64,000 bases of DNA from Candidatus Uhrbacteria bacterium (GTDB lineage Bacteria; Patescibacteriota; Patescibacteriia; UBA9934; GWF2-40-263). A program made the translations under genes and the position numbers. This document shows positions 34,659 to 37,770 of this stretch, piece by piece. The notes under the pieces are model-generated. The model did not search any database. It was not told the DNA's origin and saw only the letters and a program-made list of their open reading frames with translations. The DNA lies in contig JACPHU010000006.1 of the NCBI GenBank assembly GCA_016188495.1, forward strand, positions 1,857-65,856. The letters run 5' to 3'. Position 1 is the stretch's first letter; each line of letters opens with the position of its first letter.

Positions 34659-34796
34659 AATTTGATGAGTTTTGAAGGGATCTATTGTCTAAACATGAGC
34701 GTGTTTGACGGATGAACCGAAGAATAGAGGAATAAAGGGTATTGGTCAAGGTTTAGTCCTTATAATCTTCTATAGCTTGCCTCGTATCTATTACTG

Positions 34797-34912
34797 CCTG
34801 AGTCTGCTTGCCGTGAGCCTGTCGAACGGTCGAAGGCCGTATATACACCCTTCGACTCCGGTTCGTCGCAACGTTCCTCCGCTCAGGGAATATACAGTTG
34901 ATACCTCGTCAG
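34797..34912. repeat. REP-like palindrome cluster (family D)
   Basis: GCCGTGAGCCTGTCGAACGG nested in GCCTGAGTCT..GTCGAAGGC, then CCCTTCGACTCCG...CCGCTCAGGG; 34848-34912 closely matches 48758-48822. Confidence 0.75.
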
Positions 34913-35024: not shown

Positions 35025-35053
35025 TTGACAAAGTTGTCAAAATCTGGTAAACT
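35025..35053 (+). promoter_or_regulatory. Strong sigma70 promoter with AT-rich upstream tract
   Basis: TTGACA-17bp-TAAACT with extended TG; AT-rich 34925-35020. Confidence 0.75.
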
Positions 35054-35094: not shown

Positions 35095-35330
35095 ATGTCA
35101 TCTCAGAAATCCGGAGGAATACTCTGTCCGTCGTGGTAGTCCCTGAGGGGAGCCTACCAAGGAGGAGAGAGACAACCTTTCCATCGAACTTCGCAAGGGG
35201 GACGAAGGGAGGGGAGATCAAGTGGTGTAACTGGGCCTTGGCTCACTTACTCCACACACCCGATCTCCACGATCTACATTCGGGCTTGCCCAAATCACTG
35301 GATCACACTTCTCCGGATTTCTGGGATGAA
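35095..35330 (+). ncRNA. Candidate structured RNA domain (multibranched, ~235 nt)
   Basis: Closing helix CAGAAATCCGGAG (35104-35116) / CTCCGGATTTCTG (35311-35323), extendable with G-U pairs; internal TGGTAG/CTACCA and GGAGATC/GATCTCC. Confidence 0.55.
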
Positions 35331-35359: not shown

Positions 35360-35581
35360 ATGAGAGTTGCTGCCGGTTTTGCTTTTATTGTGTGTATGGG
35401 CGTCATTTTTGTTGTCCTTACTTCACAAATTCGCCACGCCCAGGAGAGGGCGGCGGAATGGATATGTGATATGAAAACCTCCGACCTTTCCACTGTCGAT
35501 GTGCAGGTGAAAGGGAGGAGGTGGCAGGTTACCGCCATGAGAAGTGAAAACGGGGAATGTGTCCTTGAGGCGCGTCCCTAA
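35360..35581 (+). CDS. Small membrane-anchored hypothetical protein
   Basis: RBS GAAGGA, N-terminal hydrophobic helix, Cys pair. Confidence 0.55.
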   Translation: MRVAAGFAFIVCMGVIFVVLTSQIRHAQERAAEWICDMKTSDLSTVDVQVKGRRWQVTAMRSENGECVLEARP

Positions 35582-35608
35582 AAAAAGACGAAGGAGGCAA
35601 GAACATGA

Positions 35609-36550
35609 AGCCTTTTTACTAAGGCTCGGTCTACTCTACGCCTTCCCTGTCGGCTTGACAGGGCGGTCTGGTCACCCAGATTGACGTATAGTTTTCCAAA
35701 CCCGAGGTGGCGCGGGGGACATGGAGGGTTCATGTATCCATAATAGGAAGTCTCTGGGGGACGTAAGTCCAAGTCATCGACCAGAGATGGATTCATACAT
35801 TGATGACCCGGCGTATCATGCGTGGGTTCCAAAGCGGAGCGTGGGGAAAGCGGACTATAGGGACTGACAGAGGTTCTACCCTATGGAAAGCAAGTACGTA
35901 GCAATTCCCGTTTCAAGGAACTCTCTCGAGCAGCACACGAAAGTCTTGTTTGCTCGAGACGTCGGCGGGTGTGAAAAACACGCCTGAAGGGTCGCGCCAA
36001 AGCATGGGAGCTCTAACAGGGACCTGAGAGCTCAGAGGCCTGGCAAGCCATCAGTATCCCAACAGGCTTTCTCTTATTTGAGCCTGCTCCGCTTTGATGG
36101 GTGGAGAAATCGAATCAGAAAAAACAGGTCTTAAGAGTTGGACCTCCTACCTTGGGTAGGTTAATCCGAATTCTACTACGGGTCGTGGGGTGGAAAAGCC
36201 ACCATGGGAACGACCATTTTAACCCACGTTTAAGAAAACGGGGCGGGTAGATATCAGACGTACTGATATCCTCTGTCCATTGAGATAAAATGGACAGCTT
36301 ATCACAAAAAGATGAGCAACAGGTCAGATGACTCCTGAATGGAAAAGTCATCATCATGAATACGGAGATTCATGAAAGACTATAAATCGTGGTTTGGGTA
36401 ACTCCAGGCCATACTCGCACGAGGCCCCTGGCCCGACCTTCAACGAAGGCATCCGGGGGCCCGTTGTACTTACCCCGGTTCGCCAATACGTTGTCGGCCC
36501 GGGGTCCTCAATTGAACGCTTAACTCAGACTTGAGAATTCGATTGAGGAA
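35609..36550 (+). ncRNA. Candidate large structured RNA (~940 nt)
   Basis: No + strand ORF of 60 aa or more lies within it; more than 20 consecutive hairpins plus long-range helices (see findings). Confidence 0.6.
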
Positions 36551-36566
36551 AACAACAGGAGGTCTT

Positions 36567-36833
36567 ATGTCTTATCCGACGGACTGGGGATTCATTGACG
36601 AGCTCGTCGATGAAAGGGACCTTTTGCGTCCCGAAGATTATGGATTGGATGAAGACGAGGATTCCACTGATGTTCAGTGGGGTCTCGGAGATTTCTCTGA
36701 TGTTGAATGGGATCGACATCAGGAAGAGACTCAGACGCGCCTGAAACAAAGGCGCGAATGGGAGGCGGGTTTGAAAAAACTCGCTCGAGACGAAGCCCGT
36801 GCTGAGGCTCGTCAGGCACGGGAAAATCGCTGA
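36567..36833 (+). CDS. Small hypothetical protein, acidic N-half and basic helical C-half
   Basis: Strong RBS AGGAGG 4 nt before ATG; 88 aa. Confidence 0.65.
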   Translation: MSYPTDWGFIDELVDERDLLRPEDYGLDEDEDSTDVQWGLGDFSDVEWDRHQEETQTRLKQRREWEAGLKKLARDEARAEARQARENR

Positions 36834-36878: not shown

Positions 36879-36916
36879 AAACAAAAACACACCTGGATTC
36901 AGGTGTGTTTTTGTTT
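36879..36916. repeat. Palindromic direct repeat / terminator, left of hicBA
   Basis: AAACAAAAACACACCTGGATTCAGGTGTGTTTTTGTTT; near-identical copy at 37412-37445. Confidence 0.85.
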
Positions 36917-36918
36917 TT

Positions 36919-37146
36919 TTAGAGTAGTTTTTTAAATTCTTCAGAAGTGATTCCGGCATCACGGATAAATCGGTACATCAATCCAACACCAATTTCTTTA
37001 TGTAATGGAATAGTGATTGGTCTACGGTTTGGATCGTCTTTGTGTTTAAGTCGTACATGACTTCCTTTTTGTCTTACGACTGTATAACCAATTTTTGTAA
37101 ATGCACGCACAACCTGTTTCCCTGAAATTCCTGCTAGATCAGTCAT
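36919..37146 (-). CDS. hicA: HicA-family mRNA interferase toxin
   Basis: GYTVVRQKGSHVRL, ITIPLHKEI. Confidence 0.9.
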   Translation of the reverse strand: MTDLAGISGKQVVRAFTKIGYTVVRQKGSHVRLKHKDDPNRRPITIPLHKEIGVGLMYRFIRDAGITSEEFKKLL

Positions 37147-37148
37147 AT

Positions 37149-37379
37149 CTATGCGCGGATAAAATGGAGACTAATGTTGTGTTTGGATTTTTGGTGTGCG
37201 CGTTTTGGGGTATCTTCTAAACAAAGTTGAATGGCTTCTTGAATATTTTCAAGGGCTTTATCCATCGTTTTTCCTTGGCTGTAACATCCTTCAAAAACAG
37301 GACATTCCACCCAATATCCAACAGAATCATCCTTATGAACTATAACAGGATAGTCGTTTACAATATGTTTGCTTAGCAT
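37149..37379 (-). CDS. hicB: HicB-family antitoxin (short form)
   Basis: YWVECPVFEGCYSQGKT..ALENIQEAI. Confidence 0.9.
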   Translation of the reverse strand: MLSKHIVNDYPVIVHKDDSVGYWVECPVFEGCYSQGKTMDKALENIQEAIQLCLEDTPKRAHQKSKHNISLHFIRA

Positions 37380-37411
37380 ATGCCTTAAAGATAACACACA
37401 ACGTTTATCAA

Positions 37412-37446: not shown

Positions 37447-37698
37447 TTAAAATTCCAGTGGAATGTTTGCGTGTCTGGCGAGTTGTTTTACAAACCCTTC
37501 GAGTCTATCGTACTTGGCTCGCAAGGCAACCAATTCTGTATCCAGTTTTTGATGCAATACAACAAAACCATCTACATGTGTCATGATTTCCGTTTTTGTT
37601 TCTAAAAGAGTTTGTTGAAATTCATCTCTGGTGACCATTCTCTCTTTGAGAAACTCAACAATGTTTAAGATGTCATTCATGGTTTGTTCTTGGTTCAT
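37447..37698 (-). CDS. Small coiled-coil hypothetical protein (start uncertain)
   Basis: Heptad-rich ORF between smc and hicB. Confidence 0.6.
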   Translation of the reverse strand: MNQEQTMNDILNIVEFLKERMVTRDEFQQTLLETKTEIMTHVDGFVVLHQKLDTELVALRAKYDRLEGFVKQLARHANIPLEF

Positions 37699-37770
37699 AC
37701 ATTCAAAGCTTAGCATGTTTCCAGTTATATTCAAAAACCAATTTTTCTACTACTTTATGACTCTATTTTT

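Follow-up and report, generated by a model that had tools for sequence, protein, structure and literature searches.

A predicted modular family of large structured RNAs in one class of Patescibacteria, with a mini-gene at a conserved distance from the core

Comparison with its homologues indicates that the interval at positions 35,609 to 36,550 of a 64,000-nt stretch of Candidatus Uhrbacteria DNA (hereafter the window; contig C19; genome size 1.19 Mb, completeness 96%) belongs to a family of modular RNAs within a single class of Patescibacteria, and that this family of large structured RNAs is genuine, not described before and tied to the ribosome in a precise and testable way. An earlier note on the window had proposed an undescribed large folded RNA read on the + strand, and this proposal is borne out by covariation among homologues and by the lack of an Rfam match. 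New here is that the stretch is not ORF-free and that a mini-gene lies at a conserved distance from the core of the RNA. In the reading that we favor (probability roughly 0.45), the locus would produce a stable RNA serving as a dock for a terminating ribosome. The parts of the locus are given in order in Table 1.

Table 1. Predicted features of the window in the region of the studied RNA.
Feature	Position	Strand	Basis or remark
Sigma-70-type promoter	35025..35053	+	10/12 consensus match, extended -10
Element A, separate conserved structured RNA module, outside the core family	35098..35329	+	21/36 predicted pairs change on both sides, 14 copies
73-aa orphan ORF, hydrophobic N-terminus, no Pfam family, cargo	35360..35581	+	ORF list
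Short ORF MKPFY	35605..35622	+	strong Shine-Dalgarno 35591-35597
5' domain: hairpins, optional module	35645..35716	+	alignment A9, 9 rows; pairs read by eye, no tool count
Mini-gene	35723..35743	+	Shine-Dalgarno 35723-35727, start 35732, Met-Tyr-Pro, stop end 35743
Core, first pseudoknot	35750..35807	+	H1 6/8 and PK1 4/6 pairs change on both sides
H1	35750-35757 with 35781-35788	+	GNRA hairpin within
PK1	35773-35778 with 35802-35807	+	core alignment
Core, second pseudoknot, with H3, H4, H5, H6	35808..36007	+	covariation
H2	35808-35814 with 35959-35965	+	covariation
PK2	35816-35821 with 36002-36007	+	covariation
Conserved purine-rich internal loop	35841-35850 with 35891-35902	+	core alignment
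Nearly invariant junction	35987-36004	+	core alignment
Middle domain: H7, H8, H9, more hairpins, insertion	36008..36370	+	3' half covaries, 35/58 pairs change on both sides
Short ORF MKDYKSWFG	36372..36401	+	weak 4-nt Shine-Dalgarno 36364-36367
3' domain, G+C-rich helices, loose conservation	36402..36504	+	relatives' alignments
Terminal hairpin	36505..36549	+	covariation; one copy in genome
88-aa orphan ORF, cargo	36567..36833	+	not a constant partner
17-bp inverted repeat, T-rich ends	36879..36916	+	not called by terminator scan

Altogether 26 cores were found, 16 of them in long forms (650-950 nt) and ten in shorter, more distant versions. When 101 genomes were searched at the DNA level, pieces turned up in 18 of them (window genome included), and the interval fell into two elements, element A and the studied RNA, the latter being present in ten relatives; a pattern scan of metagenomes returned 88 loci, 11 of them true and four of these new; two core models added a fifth long form (G021) and the ten distant cores. 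As these models are blind to structure and score the sequence alone, they may have overlooked distant relatives. At the level of the order, 19 of 151 genomes matched, one of them falsely (18 true), with the family accounting for 15 of its 65 genomes; the class search yielded 4 of 151 and the phylum search 2 of 151, the second being false, whereas the orders of the distant genomes G227 and G192 contributed two of three and one of 26 genomes, respectively. Weak model matches in G046, G081 and G433 proved to be coding DNA and were dropped. The core is present once per genome except in G025, which has two, and within the family it mostly occupies one chromosomal place; homologues were found in the rpsP-smc interval, as had been guessed from the window. 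In locus L169 of G025, two different cores stand in tandem, 330 nt apart. No true match occurred among 78 viral loci from four pattern scans or in the phage and plasmid collections. Among nine named records with the motif, three are titled Ca. Uhrbacteria and three Patescibacteria or Parcubacteria; L034 and L039 carry the title "uncultured Gammaproteobacteria" and contain the RNA in the same rpsP-smc setting, so these titles look mistaken.

According to the alignments, the constant core comprises about 190 nt (in the window 35750-36007, insertions included) and is followed by H7 and H8 up to 36049; taken together with these helices it measures about 190-300 nt (35750-36049) and contains two pseudoknots. 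H1 and PK1 form an H-type pseudoknot, and H2 closes the junction of H3, H4 and H5, while PK2 joins the linker 5' of H2 to the core's 3' end. In the alignment of 25 cores (G192, found later, is left out), both-sided changes occur at 14 of 29 pairs, and 97% of the cells are paired, compared with 24-44% in controls with slid partners. For the 16 long forms, both-sided changes were counted at 23/37 pairs and, in another count, at 16/22; the 3' half and the terminal hairpin covary as well. Unaided, RNAalifold recovered the helix of PK1 and H2-H7 (34/53). The outer pair of PK2 is paired in 25/25 rows with four pair types, and its four inner pairs, which show no compensatory change, prove nothing alone. 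Several core pairs change four to seven times on a tree of the cores (a partly circular count, the tree having been built from the cores themselves), and covariation of the core extends across four or more families. Because the structures were derived from the very sequences compared, and because kinship among rows may by itself outperform shuffling, the evidence rests mainly on the slid controls and on the variety of pair types. With its complex conserved secondary structure and covariation, the molecule is, as far as comparative analysis can tell, of the kind termed large ornate bacterial RNA.

Outside this core the molecule is variable. The 5' domain probably contains a pseudoknot of its own (35671-35676 with 35706-35711), a small extra pseudoknot (PK3) occurs in 12 of 25 loci and was not detected in the window genome, and the purine-rich internal loop of the core is presumably loop-E-like. 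The MKPFY ORF is common only to the window genome and its closest relative, L040; these two are also the only ones to possess the middle-domain insertion, including a local hairpin that is kept by paired change (alignment A7).

The folding energy of the stretch (-370.6 kcal/mol) is better than that of 20 dinucleotide shuffles (z -5.8). The - strand, however, reaches z -4.9 and neighboring coding DNA -3.9 to -5.4 (200-nt windows), the most conserved part (35651-35850) having a z of just -0.9; the z-score alone is weak because the - strand and the neighboring genes score similarly, and homologues were therefore relied on, covariation being the real support. All 12 arm pairs named in the earlier note were located, the absence of a + strand ORF of at least 60 aa inside the stretch agrees with the ORF list, and the promoter-like site lies where it had been placed; the + strand, previously read from G-U pairs, is fixed by conserved G-U pairs in 25/25 and 23/25 cores at two positions. 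Other parts of the first description had to be given up. The three nested long-range helices are conserved in none of the ten relatives aligned in A1 (the closest relative, L040, not being counted): the 3' arms of two are gaps in 10/10, and the third, the 3' arm of which is coding sequence of a short ORF, keeps 0-5 of its 9 pairs, whereas the control helix H2 keeps 6-7 of 7. Instead of one uniform fold of about 940 nt, only the core is constant, the other modules being optional, shuffled or duplicated, and the label "non-coding" conflicts with the presence, within the stretch or at its border, of three short ORFs preceded by ribosome-binding sites. A leader of the gene at 36567 had also been considered; among five candidates its product matches only itself and a relative follows the core in only 2/25 loci, so that the RNA is no leader of that gene.

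In 19 of the 26 cores, a mini-gene consisting of a Shine-Dalgarno sequence, a start codon, two to five codons and a stop codon ends just 5' of the core; by the same test, in which four matching bases were accepted as Shine-Dalgarno sequence, 302 of 15194 flanking positions (2%) scored as background. The gap between stop codon and H1 is 6 nt in ten, 5 nt in five and 1-4 nt in four cores, these values shifting by one if H1 is taken without its terminal G-U pair; in the window it is 6 nt, and a second in-frame stop codon comes next. The encoded peptides show no relationship to one another and each of the three stop codons occurs, hence the position rather than the product is kept. Fourteen of the 19 positives belong to the 16 long forms, which represent a single family, and do not count as independent; the remainder are found in five of the ten distant cores. 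Seven cores lack a full mini-gene (some have only a start or only a stop codon, and in four the frame enters the core), which means that not all copies require it. In G015 and G051 the leader is overlapped by ORFs of 95-100 aa that look spurious.

When the P site is occupied by the last sense codon, the start of H1 lies 11-12 nt beyond the first base of that codon, a spacing that would set the first helix at the mRNA entrance of the ribosome, the 16S rRNA of which retains its anti-Shine-Dalgarno tail in this genome. A similar structure at the mRNA entrance is the gammaretroviral readthrough pseudoknot. In the sections of PMC7282821 that were accessible, the bacterial mRNA channel is given as 11 nt and stem-loops 11-12 nt downstream are described to block A-site tRNA binding, in experiments that concern tRNA binding and not release factors; the dnaX and HIV stem-loops treated there likewise place a helix or pseudoknot 11-12 nt behind the P-site codon. 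Such frameshift and readthrough structures differ from the studied RNA, in which a stop codon would enter the A site after two to five codons, all frames downstream lack a long ORF and the fold is large and built of several domains. Readthrough into a protein was rejected as no long frame follows the mini-gene. Alternatively, the spacing may just reflect the nearest position at which a stop codon can stand without melting of H1, in which case docking would be unneeded.

In the favored reading of a docked terminating ribosome, the promoter at 35025 would give rise to a transcript of element A, a cargo gene, the RNA and a second cargo gene, and the repeated terminal hairpin could act as processing or trimming site (an RNase III is encoded in the genome). 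A ribosome would load on the mini-gene, translate it and halt on the stop codon with H1 at its mRNA entrance; as the stop codon would be reached without melting of H1, the ribosome would sit against the folded core, the nearly invariant junctions of which might contact the 30S subunit and slow termination. The role would then be the holding or storing of ribosomes, with the aromatic micropeptide encoded downstream as an optional second product. The patchy range (15/65 family genomes) is odd for such a basic function. A more far-reaching version, which we regard as doubtful, envisages an RNA-only ribosome trap whose core would grip the 70S ribosome and block release while the rest supplies the aromatic micropeptide, i.e. 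a hibernation or sequestration cassette spread among Patescibacteria.

Another possibility, on the whole rather unlikely, is a free, abundant, ornate RNA in the style of GOLLD, ROOL or raiA, the core of which would fold or assemble alone or bind a small molecule or protein, with the mini-gene shielding the 5' end or aiding folding. GOLLD and ROOL often lie near tRNAs, and upstream of the core in G227 (L148:1082-1170) and G159 (L149:1925-2016) a tRNA-like cloverleaf, which has one additional arm and whose T arm is canonical, was observed behind rnpA-yidD-like genes; it is not called by ARAGORN, and no tRNA genes were called in 23 loci. The cores without a full mini-gene (7/26) also speak for a free ornate RNA, and its size, two to four pseudoknots, GNRA loops, invariant junctions and lack of a partner protein fit the portions of PMC12286853 and PMC12968392 that could be consulted. 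Indeed, when a constant partner protein was sought after the core in 25 loci, none emerged besides the flanking Smc (12/25) and S16 (10/25); real cargo families reach at most 5/25 loci, larger clusters being shadow frames. A free ornate RNA would, however, leave the narrow stop-to-helix spacing unexplained, and absence from viral contigs sets the studied RNA apart from GOLLD and ROOL. RNase J is an exonuclease that is blocked by a parked ribosome; no RNase J was found above the cut-off in the genome, which counts against the 5'-shield form and led to rejection of protection against this enzyme, and RNase Y is present.

Rfam searches of the window and ten related loci, at gathering and E-value thresholds, returned chance-level matches only and none on the core; no match was obtained with the model of the conserved 3' domain of GOLLD (RF02032), with ROOL (RF03087) or with the raiA motif (RF03072; stems P1, P3-P6, PK1, PK2). 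Searches of the window genome for GOLLD, raiA and 6S were likewise negative, as was that for ROOL, which lacked a ringing control and adds little. OLE is adjoined by a constant membrane-protein gene, oapA; neither an Rfam match to OLE nor a constant neighbor gene was seen here. As described in the accessible text of PMC12286853, GOLLD and ROOL resemble the studied RNA in length (600-900 nt), several pseudoknots, the combination of conserved and variable domains, the lack of a partner protein and an unassigned function; they belong to phages and tRNA islands, whereas the studied RNA occupies a chromosomal hot spot of Patescibacteria, contains internal ribosome-binding sites and short ORFs and is constant over about 190-300 nt only. 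A phage or prophage setting near tRNA genes was not encountered apart from the tRNA-like fold in two loci. With raiA, as far as the consulted part of PMC12968392 goes, it shares a compact core of about 200 nt with two pseudoknots, optional peripheral stems, a loop-E-like motif and a single locus per genome, and differs by its helix order, the absence of a closing P1, the phylum and the mini-gene at the 5' edge.

To tmRNA (RF00023) the RNA presumably bears likeness in several pseudoknots, a short internal ORF and the ribosome action predicted here; the window copy is devoid of a tRNA-like domain and its ORFs have their own start sites. Neither tRNA-Ala-like ends nor a resume-codon ORF were found, and the true tmRNA is encoded on contig C23. 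Similarly, the order of helices H2, PK2, H3, H5 and H6 recalls, in our view, P2, P4, P5, P15 and P19 of RNase P RNA (RF00010), but the model gave no match, an A-rich catalytic junction could not be recognized, and the true RNase P RNA lies on contig C26 (162 bits); with true copies elsewhere in the genome, the earlier exclusion of both families stands. That the studied RNA works like any one named family is not certain. No description of it was found in the literature searched, in which subscription journals were thinly covered; an intergenic-cluster preprint (bioRxiv 10.64898/2026.10.21.760802) mentions Patescibacteriota once in the text seen, for a repeat array, and its supplementary cluster tables may hold the motif.

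The apparent RNase P-like order of helices, together with a core of ribozyme size (about 190 nt, two pseudoknots, invariant junctions), would also suit a ribozyme or selfish mobile module, the core of which might cleave, cap or splice the multi-gene transcript of a variable locus. A mobile module would explain the scattered, sometimes tandem occurrence (18/151 genomes in the order, 4/151 in the class, 1/26 in the order of G192; tandem cores in G025). This reading is nevertheless clearly improbable: the genome encodes no reverse transcriptase, Rfam gave no match to group I or group II introns, retrons, ribozymes or HEARO, no gene is interrupted, and the RNA is single-copy except in G025 and mostly confined to one chromosomal place in the family.

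Downstream of the core, a counterpart of the aromatic short ORF MKDYKSWFG is present in 14 of the 16 long forms and degenerate in the other two. Two peptide motifs, xPSWFG and YPLLFY (seven rows each), can be distinguished, and Pro, Ser, Gly and Leu codons vary synonymously; the rows having been picked by peptide motif, the count of 14/16 leans towards coding. Relatives of this ORF are also found in G080 and the distant G192. The placement of the core ahead of a synonymously varying ORF, in 14/16 long forms and in G192, and the burial of the ORF's binding site and start codon in a hairpin of the window copy (36354-36375) would be in line with a cis-acting sensor, i.e. a riboswitch or leader-peptide attenuator for the micropeptide or the cargo genes behind it. 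Such a sensor appears slightly less probable still than a ribozyme, given that no such ORF is listed downstream of the core in 7/9 distant loci, that in G080 (L170) the ORF, MYPSWFA, is located upstream of the core, that no terminator or anti-terminator adjoins the core, and that neither a constant downstream gene class nor an expression platform was found. The G080 arrangement indicates that modules are shuffled. Moreover, a terminator-like hairpin directly follows the unit in 7/16 long forms (judged by eye) and so leaves nothing else to control.

A promoter occurs just 5' of the RNA in G004 (11/12) and G192 (12/12), and between rpsP and smc in G015 and G051 there is hardly anything but promoter, RNA and terminator; hence the RNA can stand alone. 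The terminator scan did not call a hairpin after the unit in G004 or G192; in the window, the inverted repeat at 36879..36916 is probably the terminator of the unit. In many related loci the terminal hairpin, single in the window genome, recurs in two to five copies as a spacer between cargo genes. This recurrence could suggest that the palindromes act as DNA, for instance as attC-like recombination sites of a cassette array from which no functional RNA is made. We hold this to be very improbable, as it would apply to the last hairpin only, while in the core one strand retains G-U pairs, pseudoknots and GNRA loops, and promoters and ribosome-binding sites are present as well; in addition, the genome encodes one tyrosine recombinase, on another contig, and has the hairpin in a single copy.

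To our knowledge, few bacterial RNAs of such size and complexity are known. Among those with a known job, nearly all are catalysts or act on the ribosome. The core described here is compact, covarying and small enough for transcription and imaging, and its ribosome-loading site at a fixed distance is a built-in clue that is absent from GOLLD, ROOL and raiA in the descriptions available to us, by which the function becomes testable in ordinary E. coli extracts. The RNA bears on translation control in Patescibacteria, organisms with minimal genomes and long idle phases.

Element A appears to be a second undescribed structured RNA of about 170-230 nt without an Rfam match, and is predicted to share one transcript with the core RNA. 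Besides the window, copies were seen on contig C15 of G000 (76876-77012 and 77821-77988) and in L005, L006 and L012; the element recurs, often twice, before orphan genes beside a holB-like gene (named from reading the ORF). Four relatives likewise have matches to the promoter stretch at 35025. The -35 box of this promoter coincides with one half of a 16-bp palindrome (35025-35040) of a type present four times in the genome, two of these at promoter-like sites; the same palindrome overlaps the -35 box at both orphan-gene loci, i.e. here and near 78343 on contig C15, and is likely the operator of some repressor. A further palindromic intergenic element, REP- or MITE-like by eye, is repeated in the window (34790-34900), on contig C15 and in L102, and is inserted in element A of G004 and in the terminal hairpin of L102. 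On the - strand of the window, a 95-aa coiled-coil-like orphan (37447-37734) with relatives in 5/25 loci represents the commonest cargo gene, and a HicA-HicB toxin-antitoxin pair is encoded at 36919-37397; HicA- or HicB-like genes flank several related loci.
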